Origin: Spirochaetia bacterium
Lineage (GTDB): Bacteria > Spirochaetota > Spirochaetia > SZUA-6 > Bin103
DNA length: 64,000 nt
Assembly: GCA_965199955.1 (NCBI GenBank)
Contig: CBDATQ010000001.1
Coordinates: forward strand, 2,006,284-2,070,283
Direction of reading: 5' to 3'
Shown here: piece by piece, positions 1,742 to 47,808 of the stretch
How positions within the stretch are numbered: position 1 is the first letter of the stretch
How the letters are laid out: each line of letters begins with the position of its first letter
Position numbers and translations under genes: made by a program
The notes under the pieces: generated by a model
The model's input: only the letters and a program-made list of their open reading frames with translations
Database searches by the model: none
What the model was told of the DNA's origin: nothing

Positions 1742-2270
1742 ATGAAGAGGCATCTCTCAGTGCTCGCCACCGTCTTCGTTCTGCCCATCCCCACAAGCGG
1801 GCTGTTCGCAGCCGCGCAGGAGGAGATGGCGGCGGAGAAGACGACGTTCAGTGGCTCGGTGGAGGATGGAACACCGAGATCGTGGACGATGGCTGGGCCG
1901 AGCAGATAATCCAGGACAAGTTCGAAGTCGAGATCACACCCGTGAACATCCTGAGGAGCGAAAAGGACAAGCTCAATCTCCTGGTCGCCTCCGGCGACTT
2001 TCCGGACGTGGCGTACTGGAACGCATCGGACCGATACGGCCTGTATTCCGACGGGGTGACGCGGTCCATTCCGGAGTCGTTCTTCCGGCAGTACGCAACC
2101 TGATGGAGGACGGCGCGCTCATCCAGGCGACGATCTCCAAGAACTACCGGGACTATCTCAAGCTGCTCGCCGGCTGGTACGCGGAAGGGCTGATCGACCC
2201 GGAGTTCACGATGCTCAAGAAGACGATCGAGGACGAATACCTGGTCAAGAGGCGATCACCGGAGAGGTAG
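1742..2270 (+). pseudogene. Carbohydrate ABC transporter substrate-binding protein, frameshifted fragments
   Basis: A signal-peptide-like start MKRHLSVLATVFVLPIPTSGLFAAAQ at 1742 is followed by pieces in two frames. These are WAEQIIQDKFEVEITPVNILRSEKDKLNLLVASGDFPDVAYWN and ATISKNYRDYLKLLAGWYAEGLIDPEFTMLKK. GC is about 55-58%, far below the window average. Confidence 0.5.
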
Positions 2271-2470
2271 ACATCGACAGCTCCTGGGACGACTACGTCG
2301 CCCAGTGGCGGAAAGCCGGCGGCGACGAGCTCCTGACCGAGCAGGCCCAGGGGCTCCTCTACGGCGAGTTCATGAACGGCAACATCGTCTACTGATCATC
2401 GTCGGTGAAGCCGGCAAGGAGGGGAGCGGTGCATACACCGCTCCCCTTTCGTTAGAGTGGGGAGAGTTCG

Positions 2471-2757
2471 ATGTCGACGCTCGCGAACAAGGATGTCAGA
2501 AAGGTCATCCGCAGGCAGACCCTCAACAGGGCGAAGCGGATGCACGAGTACTACATCCTGCTCCTCATCCCCGTAATCCTTCTGGTCCTACGAGGTGGCC
2601 GACGTCATCGACACCTAATATTTACCGGTCTGGTTTCGTGGAGCGCCGGTGGGCGTACAACACGGACGTCGTACTGTTCAAGAACGTGGTGGGGCTGATC
2701 CTCTTGATCGGCGCGAACGCCGTCATCAAGCGCTACAGCGAGTACGGGATCTGGTAG
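2471..2757 (+). pseudogene. Carbohydrate ABC transporter permease (LplB-like); only N- and C-terminal fragments remain
   Basis: RRQTLNRAKRMHEYYILLLIPVILLV (N-terminus) and VVLFKNVVGLILLIGANAVIKRYSEYGIW (C-terminus) occur in different frames about 200 bp apart. The middle of the gene is missing. Confidence 0.45.
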
Positions 2758-2769
2758 CGGCAGCGAGCG

Positions 2770-3340
2770 ATGGCAGAGACACTGCAGAGACGGACCGTCG
2801 GCGGCCGGGCGTTCGACTCACTCAACGTCCTGTTCCTGCTGCTCTTCACCGTAACCGTGGTCTACCCGTTCTGGCATCTGATGATCATTTCCTTCTCGGG
2901 CACGGACGACATCGTCACCATGGGACTTCACTTCTGGCTGGACGAATGGCACATCGAGGCGTATCGGTATGTCTTCAGCAGCAACCGGGTGGGCAGAACG
3001 TACGTCAACAGCATCCTGCGGGTGGCCATCGGGACGACCACCGCCATCATCGTGACGCTGTTGGCCGCCTATCCGCTGGCGAAGCGGGACCTCCCGGGAA
3101 GAAATGCCATCACGACGACATTCGTCTTCACGATGTTCGTCGCGGGCGGACTCATTCCCCACTATCTCCGCGTACGAGGCCTGGGCTTGATCGACTCGCG
3201 GTGGGCGCTGGTCCTTCCCGTTGCCCTGGACGTGTTCTGGGTCATCATCATGCGCAACTTCCTGATGGCCATCGACGTGGAGATGGAGGAAGCGGCCTTC
3301 ATGGACGGCGCGAGCGTCAGGACCATATTGGTCAGGATCC
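2770..3340 (+). pseudogene. Carbohydrate ABC transporter permease (LplC/YtcP-like), 3' truncated
   Basis: TM-rich ORF with the EAA-loop-like segment AIDVEMEEAAFMDGASVRTILVRI. It loses similarity after about 3340; the remaining ORF tail to 3522 is antisense to the GH4 relic. Confidence 0.55.
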
Positions 3341-8852: not shown

Positions 8853-8873
8853 CGCGACCCGCACGCCGACCGG

Positions 8874-9430
8874 TCAGGCGACGATCCTCTCCTGCAGCGC
8901 CGGCAGCGCAAAGGCCAGGCCGACGCTCACCACCAGGCCGGCGACGATCTTGGCGAAGTCGAAGAGCACCAGCCGGGACACCTCGCGGCGGCTGCGATGG
9001 CGCTGGTTCCAGGCGATGGCGATCTCACGTCCTGCCAGCAGGCCCACGAACACCCAGGACGTGCTCATGGGGATGTTGCTCACCTCCTTGAACAGGAGCA
9101 GCACGACGCCGTAGATGAGATCCACGAAGGTCGCCGAGCGAATGTCGGTGGTGTTGGTCTTGGTCAGGACCGCCTTCTGGATGACGCCGCCGCGGGTGGC
9201 GAAGATGACGGCGTGCAGCAGCATCATCACCCCGACCGCCATGAGAAACCAGGCCGGGGACAGTTGCCGCGGCAGGAACACGAAGATGTTGGCAAGGTCC
9301 TGGATCAGCCATTGGCTCCACAGGAACCCAGTCGAGCACCACTGGGCGGCAATCCACCAGTTGCTGACCGGCCCCGCGTCCGGCTGAATCGGGACTCCAG
9401 GTGCCGGGTGACGAATCGATAGACCAGGAT
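8874..9430 (-). pseudogene. PiT-family inorganic phosphate transporter, C-terminal fragment
   Basis: The C-terminal approximately 160 aa of minus ORF 8874..9671 read IFATRGGVIQKAVLTKTNTTDI...SNIPMSTSWVFVGLLAGREIAIAW, the PHO4/PiT pattern. Upstream residues are Arg/Pro-rich junk. GC is locally reduced. Confidence 0.45.
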
Positions 9431-9514
9431 GGCGATCACGAACGAGCACGAAACCCACCACCATCAGCACCTCGGTCGGGATCACGGTTCGGTCAGAGCC
9501 AGGTTGCCGGAGGT

Positions 9515-10452
9515 TCAGCGATCGCCGGCGGCCCAAGCGTACGGGCCGGCGCCATGCGCGCGGATCACGGCGGCGATCCCGGCACGCAGATCGGCGGCGA
9601 GGGACCGGTGCGTTTCGATCAGGTTGGACATCTCGTCGGGATCGGCGTGCAGGTCGTACAGCTCCTCGCACGGATCGAAGCGGTGGCGGATGTACTTCCA
9701 GCGGCCGTCGCGGACCATGATCGTCCCCGCCAGCCGTTCCGGGGATTCATCCGGCTCGCGCTCCAGCGCGCGGATCTCGGAGAGCACCGGCGCTGACGGC
9801 GGCTCGGTTCCCGACAGCAGCGCCGGGGCGAGCGAGCGGCCGTGAAATGCGGCCCGGGCCGAGATCCCGGCCAGCTCCAGGAGTGTGGGCACCAAGTCCA
9901 CTCCGCCCACCGGACGCCGCAGCCGGGCGCCGGCGATGATCCGGCCCGCGCAGCAGCCACGGCACCCTGACCGACTGCTCGTACATCATCGACTTCGCGT
10001 ACGGGCCGTGCTCGCCCAGGCTCTTGCCGTGGTCGCTGATGAAGCAGACGAGGGTGTCCCCGGCCGCGCCGGCGTCCTCGAGCGCAGCGAGCAACCGGTC
10101 GAGCTGGCGGTCGACATGGGTGCAGAGCGCGTAGTAGTGCGCGGCGATCCGCCGCATGATCCGCACGCCGAACCGCGGTGCCGCGTGATGGCCCGAGCCG
10201 CGCAGGACGCCGGCTTTCCCGTCAGGTCAGCCCGGTCAGCCAGCTCGCGCGCGCGGGCGAGCAGACCGGCGAGGAGCAGCAGGCGGTTTCCAGGACCGTC
10301 CGCTGCGTGGCAAGACGTTCCAGCGTCGGGGTCTGCACCGCCGGGTCGCCCGCGAAGTCGGTGCTGGCAGCCCGCCACTGGTCGCATATGACCAGCAGGA
10401 TGTTCGGATGCCGGGGCATGCCGCAGAGTGGGGCTAGCGCACACCGCGTCAA
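9515..10452 (-). pseudogene. Sulfatase (formylglycine-dependent) split into three frames
   Basis: Minus ORF 10222..10452 reads NILLVICDQWR...CSPARASWLTG, the CxPxR FGly motif. Minus ORF 9747..10166 reads LVCFISDHGKSLGEHG. Minus ORF 9515..9910 carries the sulfatase C-terminus. At least two frameshifts separate them. Confidence 0.65.
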
Positions 10453-10499
10453 ACCGCCTGTTGTGGCGAGCGTGCCCGCTGGTCACAATTCCGGTCGGA

Positions 10500-12050
10500 A
10501 TGAGCGACGCGGGCGAGGCGGGCGGCGAGTACCTGCTGGAGGCGCTCGACATCGTCAAGCGCTACGGCGACTTCACGGCCAACGACCGGGTCACCCTGAG
10601 GCTTCGCCCCGGCCAGATCCATGCCCTGCTCGGCGAGAACGGTGCCGGCAAGTCGACCCTGGTCAAGATCATGTACGGGGCGCGGCAGCCGACGGCCGGC
10701 ACGCTGCGCTGGCGCGGCCAACCGGTCTCGATCGCCAGTCCCGCCGCCGCGCGCCGGTTCGGCATCGCCATGGTCTTCCAGCACTTCTCCCTGTTCGAGG
10801 CGCTGACGGTGGTGGAGAACATCGCGCTGGCGCTGCCCGGCCGATTCGACCCCGGCGCCTTGGCCCGGCGCGTGACCGCCGTATCCGCGGAGTACGGGCT
10901 GCCGCTGGAACCGGGGGCGCTGGTCGCGGACCTGTCCGTCGGCGAGCGGCAGCGCATCGAGATCGTGCGCTGCCTGTTGCAGGAGCCGCGCCTGCTGATC
11001 ATGGACGAGCCGACCTCCGTGCTCACGCCGCAGGAGGCGGATCAGCTCTTCCTGACCCTGCGGCGCCTGGCCGACGACGGGTGCGCGGTGCTCTACATCT
11101 CCCATCGGCTGGAGGAGGTGCAGCGGCTCTGCCACGACGCCACGATCCTTCGCCGCGCCAAGGTCGTCGCGAACGTCGACCCGCAGGCCGAGACGGCGGC
11201 GTCCCTGGCGCGGCTGATGGTCGGCGAGGACGTCCACGCCGTGCGCGCGGAGGGACACGCGCACGACGGCGACGCCGCGCTCGCCGTCAACGGGCTGACG
11301 CTGGCGGCGGAGGGACCGTTCAGTGTTGCGCTGCGCGACATCGAGCTTACCGTCCGCGCCGGCGAAGTGACGGCGATAGCGGGAGTCGCGGGCAATGGCC
11401 AGTCCGAGCTGTTCGAGGCTCTGTCCGGGGAACGGCTGGCTCCGTCGGCCGGCGCGATCACGATCGCCGGACAACCATGCGGGACACGCGGCGCGACCGC
11501 GAGGCGCCGGCTGGGCGCCGCCTTCGTGCCGGAAGAACGGCTCGGCCACAGCGCCGTGCCGGGCATGGAGCTTTCCGAGAACGTCCTGCTCACACGTCAC
11601 GCGTCCGATCGCGGACTGGTGCGCGGCGGGTTCGTCGACCGGTCCGGAACCCGTTCGGTGACACAGCGGGTCACCGAGCGGTTCGACGTGCGCATCAGCG
11701 AGGCGAACCCGCAGGCAAGCGAGCTGTCCGGCGGGAACCTGCAGAAGTTCGTGATCGGCCGGGAGCTCGACCGCGAGCCCGCGGTCCTGGTGATCAATCA
11801 GCCCACCTGGGGCGTGGACGCGGGCGCGGCGGCGCTGATCCGGCAGGTGCTCGCCGACATGGCCAAGGACGGCGCGGCGGTGCTGGTCATCAGCCAGGAC
11901 CTGGACGAGATCTTCGAGATCGCCGACCGCATCGCGGTGATCTCCCGCGGCGAACTCTCGGCGACGTATCCGGCGAATCGCGTCGACCGCGAGCGAGTCG
12001 GCCTGCTCATGGCCGGGGTCGGGGAGACGTCCGCCGGCAAGGAAGGGTAG
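10500..12050 (+). CDS. ABC transporter ATP-binding protein with duplicated ABC domains (BMP/nucleoside-type, NupA/RnsA-like)
   Basis: Start MSDAGEAGG at 10500. It has two Walker A sites (GENGAGKST, GVAGNGQS), two LSGG signatures and a D-loop. Confidence 0.85.
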   Translation: MSDAGEAGGEYLLEALDIVKRYGDFTANDRVTLRLRPGQIHALLGENGAGKSTLVKIMYGARQPTAGTLRWRGQPVSIASPAAARRFGIAMVFQHFSLFEALTVVENIALALPGRFDPGALARRVTAVSAEYGLPLEPGALVADLSVGERQRIEIVRCLLQEPRLLIMDEPTSVLTPQEADQLFLTLRRLADDGCAVLYISHRLEEVQRLCHDATILRRAKVVANVDPQAETAASLARLMVGEDVHAVRAEGHAHDGDAALAVNGLTLAAEGPFSVALRDIELTVRAGEVTAIAGVAGNGQSELFEALSGERLAPSAGAITIAGQPCGTRGATARRRLGAAFVPEERLGHSAVPGMELSENVLLTRHASDRGLVRGGFVDRSGTRSVTQRVTERFDVRISEANPQASELSGGNLQKFVIGRELDREPAVLVINQPTWGVDAGAAALIRQVLADMAKDGAAVLVISQDLDEIFEIADRIAVISRGELSATYPANRVDRERVGLLMAGVGETSAGKEG

Positions 12051-12238
12051 TTCGCATAAACCGCGGAGTATAATTCACGAATCGCGGTCCGGCCGCCGAT
12101 CCTCACGGCAACAAGACTGGGCTGGGCGGGCTCGACGCGGACGGTGAAACTGCCGACTCGGACGCTGAACCCGCACCGGCCTACGTTCCGGTTGAGAGTA
12201 CCGCCAGGACGTCAGTCTTGGGCTCATCGGCTCGGGAC

Positions 12239-12673
12239 ATGGCTGATCGTGCCGGCAACCCTTCTCCTGCCGTTGCCGCTCATGACGCTCGCCCACGGTT
12301 CCTCGACCGCCTGCCCGATGGACTGGGCCATGACCTGATCTACATCAGAACGGTAGATCACTATTTGGAGGTACACACCACAGCCGGCTCGGGCCGCGTT
12401 CTCGTTCGCTTTGCGGATGCGGTTGCGGAGCTCGGAGACCTGGGGATGCAGGTCCATCGCTGCTACTGGATCGCTCACCGCACGTTGCTGGAGGAGGGGG
12501 CGGAGTTGGTCACGCGAGGTAACCGCATGGTGCTGAGACTTGCGGAGCAAGCGTGGTGTCGCGTTTCAGGAAGCGATCGAACGAGCGCTCGGTTCGGACC
12601 GGTCGAAGGCGTTCCGGGATGGCGCATGGATCACCGCCGACGAAGCGTCAAGAGTGATCGACTGGCTGCTTGA
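12239..12673 (+). CDS. Orphan LytTR DNA-binding domain protein (lacks the N-terminal TM/receiver part usual for the family)
   Basis: RFLDRLPDGLGHDLIYIRTVDHYLEVHTTAGSGRVLVRFADAVAELG...VHRCYWIAHRTL...RVSGS matches the LytTR fold pattern. It sits in a 0.9-kb gap inside the ABC operon, after a TATAAT hexamer at about 12078. Confidence 0.4.
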   Translation: MADRAGNPSPAVAAHDARPRFLDRLPDGLGHDLIYIRTVDHYLEVHTTAGSGRVLVRFADAVAELGDLGMQVHRCYWIAHRTLLEEGAELVTRGNRMVLRLAEQAWCRVSGSDRTSARFGPVEGVPGWRMDHRRRSVKSDRLAA

Positions 12674-12928
12674 CCAGGGGCGAACCGACTGAGTCTGTGA
12701 TCCCCGGTTCCAGATCGCGATGCTGCGGCAGGCAGCGGTGGAATCGGGGGCTTTGGCCTACAGCCAGATGCCGGTGCCGGATCGCGGTCCCGCGGGCGCG
12801 GGGCTCGACGCAGGCGCCGATATCACGGATCGTATTCCGGTGATCTGGCGCCGGGAGTGCTGGGCGACTTCGATGGCGCGTCGCGCCTGCCGCGGGTGCG
12901 TCGCGCCGGGCATTGGCGGGAGTTCGGT

Positions 12929-14008
12929 GTGACGCTGCAATTCGAGAAACGCCAGCACCCCAGCCGCGTGATGGTCGTGGGCTCGCCGGTCCTGGCGATC
13001 CTGCTCACCGTGATCGTCGGCGGCATTCTCTTTGCGGCGCGCGGCCTGGAGCCGCTGCCGGCGCTGTACGTCTACTTCGTGGAGCCGGTGACCACGCTCT
13101 GGTCGATCGAGGAGATGGTCGTCAAGGCGACGCCGCTGGTGCTGATCGGCGCCGGGCTGGCGGTCTGCTTCCGCGCCAACGTCTGGAACATCGGCGCCGA
13201 GGGGCAACTCACCATGGGCGCCATCGTCGGCGCCGCCGTTCCCGTCCTGGCCACGGAATGGCAGTCGCCGCTGGTCTTGCCGCTGATGATGGCGCTCGGC
13301 ATCGCCGGCGGCATGGCCTGGGCGGCGATCCCGGCGCTGCTCCGCAACCGGTTCGGAGCTAACGAGATTCTCACCAGCCTGATGCTCGTGTACGTGGCCC
13401 AGCTCGTCCTGGACTGGCTGGTGCGCGGTCCGTGGCGCGACCCCGAGGGGTACAACTTCCCGGAGTCGGTGGCGCTGCAGGGCGTTCAGCTCCTGCCGAC
13501 GCTCGGCTACAGCCGCGTCCACCTGGGCGGGGCGTTCGCGCTGTTGGCCGTGCTGGTGCTGTTCGTGTTCCTGTCGCGCACGTTGAAAGGTTTCGAGATC
13601 CAGGTGTCCGGCGACGCACCGCGCGCCGGAGAATTCGGCGGCTTCCGGCGGCCGCGCACCGTGTGGTTCTGCCTGCTGCTGTCCGGGGGACTGGCGGGAC
13701 TGGCCGGCATCGGCGAGATCGCCGGGCCGATCAGGCAGCTGCAGCCGTCCATCTCGCCGGGCTACGGATTCACGGCGATCATCGTGGCGTTCCTGGGCCG
13801 ACTGAACCCGATCGGGGTGCTGCTGGCGGGGATCGTTCTCGCCAGCAGCTACCTGGGCGGCGAAGGGGCGCAGATATCGCTGGGGCTTTCCAGCAAGACG
13901 GCGCAGGTGTTCCAGGGCACGCTGCTGTTCTTCATCCTGGCGTGCGACACGCTGATCCGGTACCGGCTGCGATTCCGTCTGGGAGCGGTCGCGGAGCTGC
14001 CTCGATGA
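12929..14008 (+). CDS. ABC transporter permease (YufP/NupB-like)
   Basis: GTG at 12929 gives VTLQFEKRQHPSRVMVVGSPVLAILL, a typical N-terminus for this family. Multi-TM. It overlaps the next gene by ATGA. Confidence 0.75.
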   Translation: MTLQFEKRQHPSRVMVVGSPVLAILLTVIVGGILFAARGLEPLPALYVYFVEPVTTLWSIEEMVVKATPLVLIGAGLAVCFRANVWNIGAEGQLTMGAIVGAAVPVLATEWQSPLVLPLMMALGIAGGMAWAAIPALLRNRFGANEILTSLMLVYVAQLVLDWLVRGPWRDPEGYNFPESVALQGVQLLPTLGYSRVHLGGAFALLAVLVLFVFLSRTLKGFEIQVSGDAPRAGEFGGFRRPRTVWFCLLLSGGLAGLAGIGEIAGPIRQLQPSISPGYGFTAIIVAFLGRLNPIGVLLAGIVLASSYLGGEGAQISLGLSSKTAQVFQGTLLFFILACDTLIRYRLRFRLGAVAELPR

Positions 14009-39813: not shown

Positions 39814-42378
39814 ATGACAAACCGACTCACCTTTACCGTCAAGCCCCACCTCCCGGAGCGCCTGGCGCCCCTGGCCGATCTGGCCCATGACTTCTGGATT
39901 ACCTGGCACTTCGACGCCATCCGCCTGTTCATGCGGTTCGGCGCCGACGCATGGGAGCAGGCCCAGCAGAGCCCTCTGCGGCTGCTCAGCGAGTTGCCGC
40001 AGGAGCGGCTCCACGAGATGGAGCGGGACAAGGCATTCCTCGCCCACATGGACCAGGTCATCGCCGACTACCACGATTACCTGCAGGCCGATCCGTGGTA
40101 CTCTGGACCTCGCGACGCCGTGGTCGCCTACTTCTCCATGGAGTTCGGCCTGGACGCCACCCTGCCGATCTATTCCGGCGGCCTGGGGGTGCTGGCCGGC
40201 GACCACTTGAAGAGCTGCTCCGACCTGGGGTTGCCGGTCGTGGGCGTGGGGCTGCTCTACCGCACCGGTTACTTCCGCCAGCGCGTCACCATGGACGGCC
40301 ACCAGCTCGAGAGCTTTCCGGCCAACGACTTCTACAACATGCCTCTCATGCTGTGCACTTCTGCAGACGGCGAGCCGGTGACGATTACCGTGGATCTGGG
40401 CGGAGAACGGGCGCATGCGTGCATCTGGCGCGTCCGGGTGGGACGCGTGCCGCTCTATCTGCTCGACACCGACATCGACGCCAACGACCCGTCGACGCGC
40501 GAGATCACCGGTCAGCTCTACGTGTCGGACCGCCGCATGCGCCTGCGCCAGGAACTGCTGCTGGGCATCGGCGGCATTCGCGCGCTGCGCGCCCTGGAGA
40601 TCCCGGTCGCGGTGACCCACATGAACGAGGGGCACTCGGCGTTCCTGGCCCTGGAGCGGGTCCGTGAGCTGATGCACGAGCACGGCATGAGCTACTTCGA
40701 GGCACTGCAGGCGGTGTGGAGCACCACGGTGTTCACCACCCACACGCCGGTGCCGGCCGGCAACGAGACGTTCGACCCGCACCTGGTGCTGGACCAGGCC
40801 AGAGCGCTGCGCTCCGCCCTGGGGCTGGACGAGCACGAGTTCCTGTCGCTGGGCCGCATCGGGCACGACGGCGACGCGCACGGCCAGTTCGGGCTCACGC
40901 CGCTCGCCCTGCGCCTGGCCGCGCACTGCAACGGGGTCAGCAAGCTGCACGGCCAGGTGTCGCGCCGCATGTGGCGCAGCCTGTGGCCGGGCGTGCCGGC
41001 GGACGAAGTGCCGATCCGCCACATCACCAACGGCGTCCACCTGCGGAGCTGGATCTCGCATGACGTCCAGGAGCTGCTGGTGCGCTACCTGGGGCCGGCG
41101 GTGGCCAAGCACGCGCCCGAGGTGGCGGTGTGGCGGCAGGTGGACAACATCGCCGACGAGGAGCTGTGGCGGACGCACGAGCGGCGACGCGAACGGGTGA
41201 TCTGGTTCGCCCGCCGGCGCATCGTGGCGCAGATGCGGCGCGAAGGGGCCGCGGAGGCCGATCTGCGGGCGGCCGAGGTGGCGCTGCGCCCGGACGCCCT
41301 GACGATCGGATTCGCGCGCCGGATTGCCGGTTACAAGCGCCCGGGCCTGCTCTTCCGTCAGCCGGAGCGCCTGGTGCGGCTGCTCAGCAGCCGCGAGCAG
41401 CCGGTGCAGATCATCTTCGCCGGCAAGTCGCACCCCAACGATCACCAGGGCAAGGAGATGATCCGGCGCATCGTCCAGTTCGCGACCGAGCACGACCTGC
41501 GCAGCCGGATGGTGTTCCTGGACGACTACGACATCAACGTGGCGCGCTACCTGGTCGCGGGCTGCGACGTGTGGCTCAACATCCCGCGCCGGCCGCACGA
41601 GGCCAGCGGCACCAGCGGCATGAAGGCGTCGGTCAACGGATCGCTGATGGTGTCCACCCTGGACGGTTGGTGGGACGAGGCGTACAGCCCGGACATCGGC
41701 TGGTCCGTGGGCTCAGGCGAGACCTACCAGGACGAGAACATCCAGGACGAGCTGGAGGCCGACGCCGTGTTCGCGGAGCTGGAGCACATGGTCATCCCGA
41801 TGTTCTACGACCGCAGCATCGACGGCCTGCCGCGCGCGTGGATCGCCAAGATGCGGCATTCGATGACCGTGATCGGCGAGCACTTCAGCGCGCAGCGCAT
41901 GGTCGCCGAGTATCACGGCAACCTCTACGAACCGGCGCTCGCGCACGCCCGCCGGCTGCACGACTCGGGGTACCGGGACGCCGTGGAGCTCGCCGGCCAC
42001 CTGCAGCGGCTGCACCACCACTGGCCGGGGATCGCGGTCGAGCAACTCGACTCCGACAGCTCTGCGATGCTGGAGGTGGGCGACTCATTGGACGTCACCG
42101 CGCGGATCCGGCTGGGCGGACTGGAGCCGTCCGACGTGCAGGTGGCGCTCTATCATGGCGCGTTGCCCGGCAGCATCGACCTTCAGCCGGGCGACGACGA
42201 GATCGTCGACGGGCAGAGCACGCCCATGGAGCTGATCGAACGGCACGGGGAGTCGGCGACCTACCGCGCGAGCGCGATGTGCCGGAAGACGGGGAGGGTG
42301 GCCGCGACGGTGCGCGTGATGCCCGACCATCCCTTCCTTCCCCATCCGTTCGTGCCGGGGCTGTTCCTCCAGGGATGA
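39814..42378 (+). CDS. glgP: Alpha-glucan phosphorylase (GT35, long bacterial GlgP type with a C-terminal DUF3417-like extension)
   Basis: ATG at 39814 (MTNRLTFTVKPHLPERL). It has AYFSMEFGLD, the pyridoxal-phosphate region EASGTSGMKASVNG, and a C-terminal extension. Confidence 0.85.
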   Translation: MTNRLTFTVKPHLPERLAPLADLAHDFWITWHFDAIRLFMRFGADAWEQAQQSPLRLLSELPQERLHEMERDKAFLAHMDQVIADYHDYLQADPWYSGPRDAVVAYFSMEFGLDATLPIYSGGLGVLAGDHLKSCSDLGLPVVGVGLLYRTGYFRQRVTMDGHQLESFPANDFYNMPLMLCTSADGEPVTITVDLGGERAHACIWRVRVGRVPLYLLDTDIDANDPSTREITGQLYVSDRRMRLRQELLLGIGGIRALRALEIPVAVTHMNEGHSAFLALERVRELMHEHGMSYFEALQAVWSTTVFTTHTPVPAGNETFDPHLVLDQARALRSALGLDEHEFLSLGRIGHDGDAHGQFGLTPLALRLAAHCNGVSKLHGQVSRRMWRSLWPGVPADEVPIRHITNGVHLRSWISHDVQELLVRYLGPAVAKHAPEVAVWRQVDNIADEELWRTHERRRERVIWFARRRIVAQMRREGAAEADLRAAEVALRPDALTIGFARRIAGYKRPGLLFRQPERLVRLLSSREQPVQIIFAGKSHPNDHQGKEMIRRIVQFATEHDLRSRMVFLDDYDINVARYLVAGCDVWLNIPRRPHEASGTSGMKASVNGSLMVSTLDGWWDEAYSPDIGWSVGSGETYQDENIQDELEADAVFAELEHMVIPMFYDRSIDGLPRAWIAKMRHSMTVIGEHFSAQRMVAEYHGNLYEPALAHARRLHDSGYRDAVELAGHLQRLHHHWPGIAVEQLDSDSSAMLEVGDSLDVTARIRLGGLEPSDVQVALYHGALPGSIDLQPGDDEIVDGQSTPMELIERHGESATYRASAMCRKTGRVAATVRVMPDHPFLPHPFVPGLFLQG

Positions 42379-42442: not shown

Positions 42443-43222
42443 ATGAGCCCCGGCACGCGCGGCATCATCATCGGAGCCGGCCGCGGCAGTCGCTTGATGC
42501 CTGCCACGGAGAACACGCCCAAGTGCTTCGCCGAGGTGGGCGGGAAGCGCATACTCGACTGGGTGCTGGCGGCCTTCCAGGACAACGGCATCAACGATGT
42601 CTGCTTCATCGGTGGCTACAGGATCGACGTCGTCCGCGCAGCGTATCCCCGGCTCACGTTCCGAACCAACGCCAACTGGGAGCGCAACAACATCCTTGCC
42701 TCCCTGATGCACGCCGAGGATCTGATGGACGGGCCATTCATCTGCTGCTACTCCGACATCCTGTTTACCCCGGAGGTCATTCGGCGGGTGATGAACGACT
42801 GCCGCGACATCGCTCTGGTCGTGGACACGGAGTGGTCCGATCGCTACCGATACCGCACTGACCACCCGGCGGACGACGCCGAGAAGGTGATCGCGGCGGA
42901 TGGACGGATCACGCGCATCCATCGTGACATTGGGGAGTCTGCCGCGTACGGCGAGTTCACAGGCGTCTCGAAGTTCTCCCGCTCGGGAGCCACGCTCTTG
43001 AGAGAGCACTATCATCGCTGCCGGCGCCGTTACGCCGGTGCCAGCTTCCGAGAGGCGCCGTCATTCGAGAAGGCCTACCTCATCCATCTGTACCAGGAGA
43101 TGCTGGAACAGGGCGTGCCAATCGCGCACGTCGACACGCCCGGAGAGTACGTGGAGATCGACACCCAGCAGGACTTCGAGCTGGCGCGCGCGCACTGGGA
43201 CGGTGGTGGCGCGCGTGGGTGA
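42443..43222 (+). CDS. LicC-like NTP-transferase (sugar-phosphate/phosphocholine nucleotidyltransferase family)
   Basis: GIIIGAGRGSRLMPATENTPKCFAEVGGKRIL is the G-x-G-x-R-L...TENTPK signature. The 259-aa product has no C-terminal LbH domain. GC is about 62%, lower than the neighbours. Confidence 0.55.
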   Translation: MSPGTRGIIIGAGRGSRLMPATENTPKCFAEVGGKRILDWVLAAFQDNGINDVCFIGGYRIDVVRAAYPRLTFRTNANWERNNILASLMHAEDLMDGPFICCYSDILFTPEVIRRVMNDCRDIALVVDTEWSDRYRYRTDHPADDAEKVIAADGRITRIHRDIGESAAYGEFTGVSKFSRSGATLLREHYHRCRRRYAGASFREAPSFEKAYLIHLYQEMLEQGVPIAHVDTPGEYVEIDTQQDFELARAHWDGGGARG

Positions 43223-44341
43223 CCATCGCGAGCGCTTCCTGTTTCCCACTTCGGTGGTAGGTTCCGTGCCGCGACCACAATTCGTTCGCGACCTCATCGG
43301 TGCCTCCGGGTCCCTTGCCGCGGAGGACTACGGCGCGCGGATGGACGCCGCCGTCCGCTACGTCGTCGCCATGCAGGAGCACGCCGGTCTCGACGTCGTC
43401 ACCGACGGTGAGTGGCGGCGCCGGTCCTACATCGGCGTGATTGCGGAGCTGGCCCACGGCTTCGAGCTTTCGGCCAACCCTGCCGACGGTCGCCCATGGA
43501 CGGTGGTGGTAGACAGGCTGGCGCCCAAAGCGACGGGGTTCATCGCCCGTGAGGTTGCGTTTCTCAAGAGCGTGACGTCGCGTGCAGTGAAAGCCACGTT
43601 GCCGGCACCGGCGCTGCTCGGGGAACGCATGTGGGATGCGCAGCGCTCGTCGCAGGCGTATCCCACGCGAGAGCAGTTCGTGCGCGACTGCGTGCCGATC
43701 CTGCGACGCGAGGTGGAACTGGTGTGTGACGCCGGGGCGGATGTGATTCAGATCGACGACCCGCACCTGTGCCTGTTCGTGGATCCCGACGTCCGGGCCG
43801 GCTACGAAGATCCCGACGCTGCGGCCGACTTTTCGGTGGACATGGTGAACCAGGTGTTGAGCGGTCATCACGCCATGGCTGCAGACGTGACGACCGCCGT
43901 GCACCTCTGTCGGCGCGCCGGTGCCCGTGCGCGCGGTGAGCGCAGCCATCGCGGCGACTACGCGCCTACGTTGCCCAGCTCAATCGGCTGCAAGCGCAGC
44001 ACCTGACGTTGGAGTTCACCACTCCGGAGGCCGGCGACATGCAGGTGTTGCGCGATCTGCGGGAGGAACTGCAGATCGGTCTCGGCTGCGTCAGCGTAAC
44101 GCCCGGGCAGATCGATACCGCTGCTCAGATCGTGCAGCGGGTGGAAGCGGCGCTGCAATTCGTCGCGCCGGAGCGGATCACCCTCAACCCGGACTGCGGC
44201 TTTGCACCTGGCTCGGGCGCCGACGTCTCCATGGACGAGGTATACGCCAAGCTGACGGCAGAAGTCGCGGCCGCGCGTATGCTGCGGGAGACGGCACGCG
44301 CCGATCCCGGTTACTTCTGTTGCTGGAAGAAGCGCCGATAG
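43215..44341 (+). pseudogene. MetE C-terminal-domain-like (cobalamin-independent methionine synthase family) protein with one frameshift
   Basis: GTG at 43215 overlaps the upstream stop. FPTSVVGSVPRP...IQIDDPHL...HLCRRAG is followed by a frame switch at about 43950 to AYVAQLNRLQAQHLTLEFTTPEAGD...NPDCGFAPG (ORF 44009..44341). Confidence 0.5.
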
Positions 44342-44344
44342 ACT

Positions 44345-44439
44345 TCTTCCTCGGAGAGCGTTTCGGAGTGGAACCAGGTCGAGCAGATCCACTCCGACAG
44401 CGCTGCCACGCTCGAGGTGGGCGCTCGCTGGACGGACGG
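44345..44439 (+). other. Approximately 95-bp relic homologous to an internal part of glgP (start of the C-terminal extension)
   Basis: It translates SESVSEWNQVEQIHSDSAATLEVGARWTDGQ, compared with GlgP HHWPGIAVEQLDSDSSAMLEVGDSLDVTARI. 38 of 45 nt are identical between 44379-44423 and 42039-42083. Confidence 0.45.
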
Positions 44440-45360
44440 TCAGGCGCCGTTCCTGACCACGTAGGCGGTCGAAAGCAGTTCGAGCGCATCATCGAACACG
44501 GTCTCGGTGTCGGCAAACCGCACCGCGGAAATGGCCGCGCACTCGGTGGCCGCGCCTTTCGACAGGAACGATCCGGAGACCGGCGAGACGTCGGAGTAGT
44601 CGCGGCCGACGGCCAGCTTGATGTAGTCGCTGGCGGGCGGAAACAGGACGCCACGGGTGGGGTCGGCCGCGACCCAGCCGGACCGCGGATGGAGCACCTC
44701 CAGCCAGGCGTGGGTCTCTCCCACTTGTCCCGTGAGCAGCCCGCTGACGTAGCGGCAGGGGATGCTCAGCGCGCGCAGCATGCCCAGGGCCAGGTGGGTC
44801 TTGTCCTGGCACACTCCTTCCCTGGTTGCCAGCACCTGCTCGGCAGTGGTCGTGACCCCGGTGGCGCCGCGCCGGTATCCGATCTCGCGGTGCACCCACT
44901 CGACGGTCGCACGTACCGCCGCCAGCAGGGAGCCGGCGTCGCCAGCGACCTCCTGCGACACCGCCGCGACGCCTTCGGGATCGATCAGCGGCGACCTGAA
45001 CGCGAAGTCGAAGCCGTCCGGCAGATCGGTGACCTCGGCCAAGGCGGAGTCCTCGGGCGCCGGCGCCGCATCAGCCAGCCGGATCCGTCCCGCCGTGGCG
45101 ACCACGAGGCGGTCGTGCGGCGCGAAGATGCGGACGCGCTGCACGCGGTTGCCGAAGCGGTCCCGGTACTCCACGGAGCGGCCTTCGGGCCGGGTCCACA
45201 TCTGCTGGCCCATCGGCTCCTGGGACGCGTCGGCAAGGGGAAAGATGCGGAGCTGATTGTCGTTGTGCAGGACCCGGTCGGAGTAACCGTAGTGCGCTGC
45301 GTAGATATACGACGCCGTGACCGTCTGTGCCGCTAGCTGAGCACCCATGTGGGCTTGCAC
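44440..45360 (-). CDS. Transglutaminase-like (bacterial TGase N-domain + papain-like Cys-His-Asp core) protein
   Basis: CQDKTHLALGMLRALSIP (Cys), GETHAWLEV (His) and AADPTRG (Asp), with an N-terminal Bact_transglu_N-like region. Confidence 0.75.
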   Translation of the reverse strand: MQAHMGAQLAAQTVTASYIYAAHYGYSDRVLHNDNQLRIFPLADASQEPMGQQMWTRPEGRSVEYRDRFGNRVQRVRIFAPHDRLVVATAGRIRLADAAPAPEDSALAEVTDLPDGFDFAFRSPLIDPEGVAAVSQEVAGDAGSLLAAVRATVEWVHREIGYRRGATGVTTTAEQVLATREGVCQDKTHLALGMLRALSIPCRYVSGLLTGQVGETHAWLEVLHPRSGWVAADPTRGVLFPPASDYIKLAVGRDYSDVSPVSGSFLSKGAATECAAISAVRFADTETVFDDALELLSTAYVVRNGA

Positions 45361-45563
45361 AGTCCCCCCGAAGAGTTGTTGGTGATGCGGCTGCCTTCCA
45401 GCGCCACCCGGGGCAGGCCGCCGGGGAACACCGTGACCTCGCCGTCCGCGCCCTGAATGGCGAATACCCGCAGGTCCACGTGGCGTGGCTCCAGCATGCC
45501 GTTCCGCTCATTCAAGACGACGTGTTGGGAGAAGTCCAGCGCGTCTTGCGCGATGAACATCAA
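45333..45563 (-). pseudogene. C-terminal approximately 55 codons of a circularly permuted ATP-grasp (type 2) gene; the rest is absent
   Basis: VDLRVFAIQGADGEVTVFPGGLPRVALEGSRITNNSSGG..KPTWVL is the characteristic C-terminus of CP ATP-grasp proteins. Upstream sequence is occupied by the vapC 3' end. Confidence 0.45.
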
Positions 45564-46084
45564 TCCTGCGCGGCTGCTTCCCGAGTGTCGATATCGTCGA
45601 TCATCAGAACGTCGATGTCAGGGACGGATCCGAAGGCTCGGTCCGTGGTCACCAGGTGGTCGGCCCCGAGGCGTAGTGCCGTCGCGAGAATGACGGAGTC
45701 GGTCGTGAGCAGGCCGTGCTCTGATTGCAGGTCGAGCGCTCGGTCAAAGTCCGCGCGGCTGTGCGGTGCGATCCGCAGTCCCATGTCCTGCAAGGCGTCC
45801 AGCTTGGTTCGGTAGACGTGCAGCCGCCGCGCGAGCTCGGGGCGCGAGGCGAGCTTGCGCGCGGGGTTGGAGCCCGTAAGCTTCCCGGTCGCTCGCGCCT
45901 CGATGAGCATGAGTCGATGGCACACTTCCAGGAGCGCCGCAAAGGGCAGGATGCCGACGATCGTCGCCTGCGTGCAGCGAGCCAGCAACGCCTGTGCCTG
46001 TTCGGAGTATCCTGCTGCCGCATAGATCAGGATGTTCGCGTCGATGCAGCACCGCGACCCCGTGGGAATCGCCTCGACCGTCAC
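45560..46084 (-). CDS. vapC: PIN-domain toxin
   Basis: CIDANILIYAAAG plus later acidic residues (TTDSVILATALRLGADHLVTTDRAF) give the PIN fold pattern. The start overlaps the vapB stop (ATGA). Confidence 0.7.
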   Translation of the reverse strand: MTVEAIPTGSRCCIDANILIYAAAGYSEQAQALLARCTQATIVGILPFAALLEVCHRLMLIEARATGKLTGSNPARKLASRPELARRLHVYRTKLDALQDMGLRIAPHSRADFDRALDLQSEHGLLTTDSVILATALRLGADHLVTTDRAFGSVPDIDVLMIDDIDTREAAAQD

Positions 46085-46323
46085 GGGGCCAGCATATCGT
46101 CGTCGATGATGAGTTGCAGGTCGGCCGGTTCGACCGGCATCGGGCTCTCGCAGAACACGCGGTACGCCCGCATCGCCCGCTGTTGGTCGGGTCGCCGCTC
46201 GGCGAGGTATCCGATGAGCGCTTCGCTGATCACGTCGCTGATGCGCCTGCCTTCCTCGGCCGCAACGCGCCGGACCTCCATGACGAGGTCTTCCTCCAGC
46301 AGCGTCCCGACCTTCTGTTTCAT
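46081..46323 (-). CDS. vapB: VapB-type antitoxin (ribbon-helix-helix-like)
   Basis: 80-aa product MKQKVGTLLEEDLVMEVRRVAAEEGRRISDVISEALIGYL. The remainder of track ORF 46081..48006 is antisense run-on. Confidence 0.55.
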   Translation of the reverse strand: MKQKVGTLLEEDLVMEVRRVAAEEGRRISDVISEALIGYLAERRPDQQRAMRAYRVFCESPMPVEPADLQLIIDDDMLAP

Positions 46324-46359
46324 CTTTCGAGAATGCGGTAGAGTTCTACCGTTGTCAAG

Positions 46360-47808
46360 ATGAACGGCGTCTGGGTCACCCGCGGCTTCGCGGCGTTTCG
46401 GCGCGGCACCTTCGGCAATGCCGGTCAGAATCTCTACGTGTCGCGGGCCGGGTTGCTGCAGCGCATCCATCACCTGGACCTGAATCGCGACGGCTACGCG
46501 GACCTGCTGTTCTGCAACGCGCAGGGGCACCTGGAGGCGCCGCCGGCCTGCGTGTACGGGGACGTCTTCGGCGCCTGCGAGCGCACCGAGCTGCCCGCCG
46601 GCGGCAGCCCCACCGCGGCTGTGGCTGACATCTCGGGCGACGGCCATGCCGACCTGATCATCGGCAACGAGAAGAGCGGCAACGCCGGCCGCATGAACGC
46701 CAACGTCTACTTCGGATCGCCGGACGGCCTGAGCGAGCGCTACCAGACCGTGCTGCCGGCGCACCGCTGCACGTCGGTGGCTGCCGGCGTCTTCGACGGG
46801 GACGGCCGCGCGGAGCTGATCGTGACCGCGGCCGACCGGCCGCCGCGCATCTACTGGGGCGGCGCCGTCGGCACCGATCCGGAGTGCTGGTCTGACGTTC
46901 CCGCTCCCGACGGGTGGGCGCCGGTTGACCTTGCCGAAACCGAGGAGCTGTCCGAGACCGAGCGCGTGGGCGCCGTGGCGCCGCTGGCGATCGCCGTCGA
47001 CCTGGGCTCCGAACCGCTGGTATTCGTCGCCGGCGGGGCGACGCAGTTCCTGGTGCCGGTCACCCCGGAACGCGGCTTCGGCCCGCCGCTGCGGCTCGCG
47101 TGCCGCAACGCCCTGGCGGTGGCGGCCGGGGATTTCGACGGCGACGGCCGGATCGACCTGGCGATCGCGCCGGCCTGGCGCAACCGCTGCGTGATCCTGC
47201 GCGGCGGCCCGGACGGGTTCAGCACTGAACGAGCATGGGTCCTGCCCACCTCGTTCAGCGCCGGCTATCCGGTGGCGCACGACATCACCGGTAACGGCTA
47301 TCCCGACCTCCTGCTCGGCGGCGGCAAGCCCAACCCCGGCCAGCCGCACGACTCGTTCAACCACGTCTTCTGGAACGGGCCCGAGGGGTTGCGCGCCGAC
47401 CGGCAGACGCAGCTCCCGTCCAACTGCGGCCACGGCCTGGCGGTCGCCGACTTCGACGGCGACGGGGTTCCCGACCTGCTGAGCTGCGGCTACCAGAGCG
47501 CCGTCGACCGGGACGTGGACGCGGTCATCTACTGGGGCAATCACGACACGGGATTCCGCGCCGGCGACTTCACGCGGCTGCGCGCGCACTCGTCGGCCGG
47601 CTGCCTCGCGGCCGACTTCGACGGCGACGGCCGCGTCGACATCGCCATCGCAAACCACAAGATCTTCGGCGATCACGTGGGCGAGTCCTTCGTGTACTGG
47701 AACAGTCCGGACGGATTCAGCGAGCAGCGGGTCACGCGCCTGCCGAACGGCGGCTGCACCCCCCGCGTGCGCGAAGTCCGGGTAGAGTACGGGGAGCGCC
47801 AACCATGA
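46360..47808 (+). CDS. FG-GAP/VCBS-repeat beta-propeller protein without a signal peptide
   Basis: Seven-plus D-x-D/N-G-D-G-x-x-D-L repeats (DLNRDGYADL, DISGDGHADL, DFDGDGRIDL, DFDGDGVPDL, DFDGDGRVDI). The N-terminus MNGVWVTRGFAAFRRG is not hydrophobic. Confidence 0.7.
   Translation: MNGVWVTRGFAAFRRGTFGNAGQNLYVSRAGLLQRIHHLDLNRDGYADLLFCNAQGHLEAPPACVYGDVFGACERTELPAGGSPTAAVADISGDGHADLIIGNEKSGNAGRMNANVYFGSPDGLSERYQTVLPAHRCTSVAAGVFDGDGRAELIVTAADRPPRIYWGGAVGTDPECWSDVPAPDGWAPVDLAETEELSETERVGAVAPLAIAVDLGSEPLVFVAGGATQFLVPVTPERGFGPPLRLACRNALAVAAGDFDGDGRIDLAIAPAWRNRCVILRGGPDGFSTERAWVLPTSFSAGYPVAHDITGNGYPDLLLGGGKPNPGQPHDSFNHVFWNGPEGLRADRQTQLPSNCGHGLAVADFDGDGVPDLLSCGYQSAVDRDVDAVIYWGNHDTGFRAGDFTRLRAHSSAGCLAADFDGDGRVDIAIANHKIFGDHVGESFVYWNSPDGFSEQRVTRLPNGGCTPRVREVRVEYGERQP

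Follow-up and report, generated by a model that had tools for sequence, protein, structure and literature searches.

The locus examined here lies in a window of 64,000 nucleotides, the whole stretch of DNA that was analysed, from an uncultured bacterium assigned to Spirochaetia (contig CBDATQ010000001.1, positions 2,006,284 to 2,070,283). On the minus strand of this 64-kb window, a pair of genes resembling the toxin-antitoxin (TA) module vapBC is followed by a fragment of a circularly permuted (CP) type-2 ATP-grasp ligase gene and by a transglutaminase-like gene, in the order vapB, vapC, ATP-grasp remnant, transglutaminase. The original prediction for this DNA, made from the sequence alone, had placed these four genes correctly, and had read them as the result of a TA insertion or deletion event that destroyed the ligase of a peptide-modification operon while leaving the transglutaminase intact. 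The features on which the argument rests are the following (aa, amino acids).

45333-45563, minus strand: remnant of a circularly permuted type-2 ATP-grasp gene, 75 codons plus stop from the ATG at 45560, or 76 codons from the TTG at 45563
45558-45562, minus strand: TGATG, junction of a 1,147-bp deletion, located by DNA alignment with the related loci L005, L008 and L009 and by blastn against L009
45560-46084, minus strand: vapC-like PIN-domain toxin gene, 174 aa, with a PF01850 match
46081-46323, minus strand: vapB-like antitoxin gene, 80 aa, adjoining vapC, with orthologues in relatives
44440-45360, minus strand: intact transglutaminase-like gene, 306 aa, with an alternative ATG start at 45348 and the domains PF08379 and PF01841

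Judged by profile and alignment, the short open reading frame (ORF) upstream of the transglutaminase is a genuine C-terminal piece of a CP type-2 ATP-grasp gene, as had been proposed. Its match to PF14403 (CP_ATPgrasp_2) is confined to model positions 328-374 of 374 and scores 40 bits (cut-off 32; E 3e-10). All of its 75 codons align, with 91% identity, to residues 377-451 of the L009 orthologue, which is intact and has 451 aa; the initial estimate of about 55 surviving ATP-grasp codons was therefore too low. A complete ATP-grasp domain (~450 aa, model positions ~39-374) is not present, just these 75 codons being left, and a tblastn search with the L009 ligase found no further ATP-grasp match within the window. 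Ligase activity is presumably gone, since the remnant is without ~83% of the domain, including the parts before the C-terminal DLRVF...NNSSGG segment. At its 3' end the remnant overlaps the transglutaminase start by 28 nt, and at its 5' end the vapC stop TGA (45562-45560) overlaps the remnant ATG (45560-45558) as TGATG, where translation of the remnant may occur by termination-reinitiation.

Related loci for comparison (given L-numbers here) were obtained by a pattern scan of one genome per species, which returned 210 loci, 80 of which were taken for analysis. Their source bacteria are uncultured and carry the labels Spirochaetia, Dehalococcoidia, SAR202 or Chloroflexota. The open frame holding the match extends over 450-490 codons in most of the 80 loci, indicating a full-length ligase. 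An earlier candidate, a conserved family of mini-proteins, had been suggested by 38 short proteins returned by a word-indexed protein search with the fragment, and was dropped after the DNA scan of species genomes, in which most relatives were full-length and the short matches turned out to be truncated or frameshifted alleles or products of gene calling.

Compared with its relatives, the window shows a simple deletion. In a four-way DNA alignment it is without bases 8855-10001 of L005, as a single clean gap of 1,147 bp between collinear flanks that are ~90% identical. The gap starts at the base after the vapC stop, takes in both the ligase start and the 18-bp spacer before it, which relatives have, and ends between ...CCGGAGA and TGTTCATC, at the Met of ...ENPEMFIAQ, with a microhomology at the window junction of only 2 bp ('GA'). 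A mis-join or sequencing artefact might be suspected, as the source assembly is a metagenome-assembled genome (MAG) of an uncultured organism, the neighbouring MetE-like gene has a 1-bp frameshift, and sister MAGs carry ligase frameshifts (L005, L008), some of which could be sequencing errors. However, Logan assemblies of three separate SRA runs (L001-L003), that is, three separately assembled contigs, show 100% identity to the window over the junction, and both flanks are collinear with relatives. Because the separate assemblies agree in this way, an artefact appears extremely improbable.

The original prediction held that the vapBC pair had taken the place of the missing ligase part, which would imply that a mobile vapBC inserted into the operon, or recombined with it, so that the 5' four-fifths of the ATP-grasp gene were physically exchanged for it. 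Consistent with such an event, the pair is an indel within the clade: it is missing from L007 and L010-L013, and in L007 the FG-GAP and ATP-grasp genes lie ~115 bp apart, separated by unrelated intergenic sequence. Its G+C content (0.655) is also slightly below that of the region, 69% (window 0.689), and vapC directly abuts the remnant in the window. Yet in four relatives (L005, L006, L008 and L009) the same vapBC, with 85-96% aa identity, lies between the FG-GAP and ligase genes, the vapC stop ~18 bp before the start of a full-length ligase gene (~450 codons), which is intact in L006 and L009 and frameshifted in L005 and L008; the L005 orthologue reaches 324 bits on PF14403, and the 451-aa protein of L009 resembles proteins of the PF14403 type. 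That the gap begins exactly past the vapC stop, and includes spacer and ligase start, argues in the same direction, and the search for flanking direct repeats, proposed along with the prediction, and for target-site duplications around vapBC found only short matches at chance level and none that was significant. Since relatives carry vapBC directly upstream of a full-length ligase, the event is a plain deletion and not a TA replacement, and we consider the latter very improbable. Thus, of the two kinds of event initially put forward, a deletion is borne out and a TA insertion as the cause is not; likewise, relatives do retain the full operon, as had been expected, but with vapBC native at this position next to a full-length ATP-grasp gene, which runs counter to replacement.

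VapBC type II modules consist of a PIN-domain toxin with an upstream antitoxin of the ribbon-helix-helix (RHH) or AbrB type. The pair in the window looks like such a PIN/antitoxin module, as was supposed at first, in that an 80-aa upstream gene overlaps by 4 nt a gene whose product matches PF01850 with 44.1 bits (Pfam cut-off 23.6), and the acidic residues of the PIN domain are present by inspection (D15, E53, D129, D148). The overlap between the vapB stop and the GTG start of vapC reads GTGA, rather than the ATGA that had been reported; it is the vapC stop and the remnant ATG that are joined, as TGATG. Other typical traits of TA modules are the palindrome in the putative promoter and the presence or absence of the pair among close relatives. 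The module differs from the known type in its long toxin (174 aa), which scores only 23.6 bits on NCBIfam TIGR00028, far under the VapC subfamily cut-off of 73.6, and in its antitoxin, for which no family match was found in Pfam (E up to 10) or NCBIfam. Weak sequence matches of VapB to RHH proteins in a PDB sequence search (EndoAI antitoxin, E 0.044; CopG family, E 0.32), and a single-sequence AF2 model (pLDDT 75) with helices at 8-24 and 28-43 and further C-terminal helices, for which the top Foldseek matches are RHH proteins (CopG, SvtR, Arc), none of them significant, only suggest an RHH fold. VapB orthologues (85-96% identical) lie beside vapC in L004-L006, L008, L009 and L017, and VapC orthologues (87-93% identical) occupy the same position in relatives. 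There, the pair lies 18 bp upstream of the ligase operon and is probably co-transcribed with it, a further difference from the known modules.

Upstream of the pair, a divergent FG-GAP gene begins 36 bp from vapB, and this intergenic region, common to both genes, holds one further element that may control the module.

46337-46358, minus strand: candidate vapBC promoter/operator, read from the sequence

It is made of TTGACA (46353-46358) followed by a perfect palindrome, GGTAGA-AC-TCTACC (46337-46350), ~14 nt upstream of the vapB ATG, and the alignment shows it to be kept in L005 and L009. A consensus promoter and terminator scan of 44200-46500 flagged no site, this TTGACA/palindrome element included.

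The ligase is not the only gene of the operon that was lost. Beyond the transglutaminase, two short segments were found.

44377-44434, minus strand: filler of 58 bp, lying between the transglutaminase stop codon and what is left of alpha-E, resembling an internal piece of an alpha-glucan phosphorylase (GlgP) gene
44311-44376, minus strand: remnant of a short alpha-E-like gene, consisting of the final 21 codons and the TAA stop (WFHSETLSEEEVYRRFFQQQK, then stop), found by tblastn, with the translation checked

The alpha-E remnant corresponds to residues 149-169 of the alpha-E-like protein of L009 (171 aa, PF04168), with 81% identity by tblastn, and the MetE-like ORF, which is convergent to it, overlaps it with its 3' end. 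In a tblastn search of the 64-kb window, no alpha-E gene was found downstream of the transglutaminase beyond these last 21 codons, a loss that the original prediction overlooked; orthologues in relatives match PF04168 at 47 bits. By blastn the filler is 91.5% identical to bases 19008-19066 of L005, which lie within the GlgP gene, and 85% identical to the window's own copy at 42036-42082, and it may be DNA from a complex rearrangement. The region beyond alpha-E varies widely in relatives: a YhcG nuclease, a radical-SAM gene and HsdM fragments occur there in L004, L005 and L007, and in L011-L013 GlgP is the direct neighbour. The distance between transglutaminase and MetE differs by 5-7 kb between the window and its relatives, for which a loss in the window and an insertion in the relatives are equally possible.

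What the intact operon looks like was surveyed by tblastn with two L009 queries, the intact ligase of 451 aa and the 171-aa protein encoded downstream of it. The order ATP-grasp (~450 aa), transglutaminase (~306 aa) and short alpha-E (~170 aa) is shared by nearly all 80 species-representative loci, the alpha-E match being missing only in L049, and in relatives the transglutaminase start overlaps the 3' end of the ligase gene, making a tight, overlapping operon. The alpha-E of this lineage is of half length, covering PF04168 model positions 8-94 only (L005-L084, ~8870-11700 per locus). The neighbourhood of CP ATP-grasp, alpha-E and transglutaminase genes has been predicted to form a peptide ligation/modification system, often linked to Anbu (Iyer et al. 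2009, as cited in PMC5666114). The order ATP-grasp, alpha-E, transglutaminase, which had been taken as conserved, does hold as the canonical one, being that of annotated Deinococcus and Enterobacter plasmids with an alpha-E of ~310 aa and agreeing with the published description; it does not hold in this lineage, which puts the transglutaminase second and the half-length alpha-E last. The relatives of the window have the same families (PF14403/PF04174, PF04168, and PF08379 with PF01841), and the lineage operon is a rearranged variant of the known one. The window itself keeps only the transglutaminase intact, with 75 codons of the ligase and 21 of alpha-E, and the system as defined is therefore not present.

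The near-universal order, together with a ligase that is intact at 71 of the 83 loci scored (species representatives together with L004 and L085-L087, which are look-up loci), indicates that the full operon is ancestral. At the remaining 12 loci the ligase is disrupted, and within the close clade this happened independently in several genomes. The gene is altered by a 2-bp insertion near codon 94 in L005 and by loss of 1 bp near codon 293 in L008; L017, which is the same genome as L004, has an in-frame internal deletion of ~1,064 bp that leaves 12 N-terminal and 87 C-terminal codons; L010 and L087 have a double deletion in common, and in the more distant L085 an IS66-family transposase is inserted in the ligase gene (1922-3256). 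Eleven close genomes hold five different ligase lesions, and in some members of this close clade alpha-E, too, is lost or is fused to the transglutaminase. In L006 a ~3.6-kb insertion lies between ligase and transglutaminase (10225-13814). The fusions of transglutaminase and alpha-E, which are in frame and give proteins of 487-508 aa, are located as follows.

L004/L017, 10201-11646: transglutaminase-alpha-E fusion
L010, 10201-11661: transglutaminase-alpha-E fusion
L085, 4201-5727: transglutaminase-alpha-E fusion
L087, 4201-5664: transglutaminase-alpha-E fusion

All five fused loci have a disrupted ligase, and none of the 71 loci with an intact ligase is fused; the fused loci represent two or three independent lineages only, and the association may be historical. 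Deletional decay of pseudogenes is well known in bacterial genomes, including those of host-associated lineages. The present case resembles it in combining independent large deletions, frameshifts and an IS66 insertion within one gene with leftovers that evolve under relaxed constraint, and differs only in the clustering of the right-hand ends of the deletions, to which we return below.

In contrast to the ligase, of which 75 codons are left, the 306-aa transglutaminase gene is complete, so that this part of the original prediction, a destroyed ligase beside an intact transglutaminase, holds. Its product matches PF01841 and PF08379 above cut-off (80.8 and 42.6 bits, respectively; E 1e-22), and motif inspection assigns the catalytic triad to C184 (GVCQD), H217 (THAWLEV) and D233 (AADPT). 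The protein is 86-97% identical to the 306-aa orthologues in L005 and L007-L009. The ratio of nonsynonymous to synonymous substitution rates (dN/dS, or omega) is 0.15-0.22 in every pair, pairs with the window included, which equals the values between relatives and indicates that the gene is still constrained by purifying selection. By dS, the transglutaminase gene is nearest to L007 (0.095, vs 0.24 to L005) and the ligase remnant nearest to L005 and L006 (0.13-0.15, vs 0.24 to L007). These discordant nearest relatives hint at recombination within the locus, on small counts.

The remnant itself gives a different picture. Over the 3' 66 codons, dN/dS between close intact alleles is 0.04-0.16, and in pairs with a truncated allele 0.16-0.47. 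A more direct view comes from L010 and L087, whose divergence is all subsequent to truncation because both inherited the same deletion. Between the two, 7 nonsynonymous and 4 synonymous changes have accumulated over 75 codons (omega 0.5-0.6), a 7:4 ratio that has p = 0.005 under the omega of ~0.1 of intact alleles and is compatible with neutrality, and the NNSSGG motif is changed in both. Private changes are nonsynonymous and synonymous in the ratio 12:5 in truncated alleles vs 1:5 in close intact alleles (Fisher p = 0.05). The changes that followed truncation affect motifs otherwise conserved: NNSSGG became NNTSGG or NNSTGG, FIAQ became FTAQ or FIAG, and GGLTRV became GGLPRV. In the window, the private substitutions at conserved sites are E6D and T50P, the latter turning the nearly invariant T of GGLTRV into P. 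Little divergence has built up since the deletion in the window, dS to L007 being about 0.1. Taken as a measure of selection, an omega of ~0.5-0.6 against ~0.1 for intact alleles suggests that the remnants evolve under relaxed constraint; the likeliest reading of the remnant in the window is that of a young pseudogene fragment, its 75-codon ORF being probably non-functional.

Several observations weigh against so simple an account. The remnant ORF is uninterrupted in all four truncated lineages examined, and the dN/dS estimates are built on very few substitutions. Moreover, the right ends of the deletions in the window, L017 and L010/L087 fall at L009 coordinates 10000, 9977 and 9985, respectively, within 23 bp of one another and upstream of the same internal Met codon, and a fourth deletion with the same right end, ...LENPEM, is suggested by the protein P0003. 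Such clustering could mean that the last ~225 bp of the ligase gene are constrained. A second intact copy of the ligase or of alpha-E may, in addition, exist outside the 64-kb window that was searched.

Clustered deletion ends and open frames would be expected if selection had kept the last ~75 ligase codons, the deletions stopping just upstream, either because a stand-alone protein of 75 aa works with the transglutaminase or because the segment acts in cis, as an internal promoter, a ribosome-binding site or a means of translational coupling. The transglutaminase start, which lies inside the remnant, and the TGATG junction, which permits coupled translation, would also suit this explanation, within which a cis-acting element for transglutaminase expression is more plausible than a mini-protein. 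Against a functional protein stand the omega of ~0.5-0.6 after truncation and the mutation of conserved motifs; against a promoter, the consensus scan of 44200-46500 detected no promoter-like site. The clustering of breakpoints, for its part, is partly a matter of ascertainment, since loci were recruited with the C-terminal ligase fragment as query, which hides alleles that have lost it, and two of the deletion junctions use a recurrent CCTGGAG-type microhomology. Selective retention of this segment therefore seems unlikely to us.

Given the deletion and its junction, a vapBC that is native here, an alpha-E gene that is lost and a transglutaminase gene that is intact, we think it likely that what remains at the locus is the decayed form of a three-gene operon specific to this lineage, whose ligase and alpha-E genes were lost by deletion beside a vapBC that was already present. 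A vapBC-like pair lies, in a subclade of these uncultured high-GC bacteria, in the divergent intergenic region between the FG-GAP and ligase genes, ~18 bp upstream of the ligase start. In the lineage of the window, a non-homologous deletion of 1,147 bp took away everything from the base after the vapC stop through codon ~376 of the ligase, and a second rearrangement the first ~148 codons of alpha-E, leaving the 58-bp filler and sparing the transglutaminase. The transglutaminase would now be transcribed from the vapBC promoter, or from another promoter within the remnant, and may either act without its partners or be itself on the way to loss.

The genes on either side of the locus also differ from those of relatives. 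The FG-GAP repeat protein (46360-47808, plus strand) has 482 aa in the window vs 904 aa in L004 and L005, where it has two halves in tandem, each with only ~55-58% identity to the protein in the window, compared with 80-95% identity to relatives for its neighbouring genes. It is a fast-evolving or recombined protein of surface type. On the other side, the MetE-like gene (43038-44341, plus strand; PF01717, cobalamin-independent synthase family) forms two separate ORFs owing to the loss of 1 bp between 43968 and 43969, outside any homopolymer, and its homologue in L005 and L007 is a single intact ORF of 432 codons. Either this gene, too, has become a pseudogene, close to the decayed operon, or the 1-bp difference is a sequencing error.

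The locus is thus a case of ordinary deletional gene decay in a known type of operon, next to a conventional-looking TA pair, and its novelty is low. Its significance is mainly for annotation: the recurrent 75-aa 'CP_ATPgrasp_2' ORFs in these metagenome-derived genomes are to be regarded as deletion remnants, not as small ATP-grasp proteins, and the adjacent TA pair as a bystander, not as the cause of the ligase loss. If the 3' ~225 bp of the ligase gene were, after all, separately constrained, the transglutaminase would have a role that does not depend on the ligase and alpha-E. The repeated loss of the ligase, with the transglutaminase under purifying selection, hints that the transglutaminase can be useful without its predicted partners, and provides a modest clue to a widespread and uncharacterised system.

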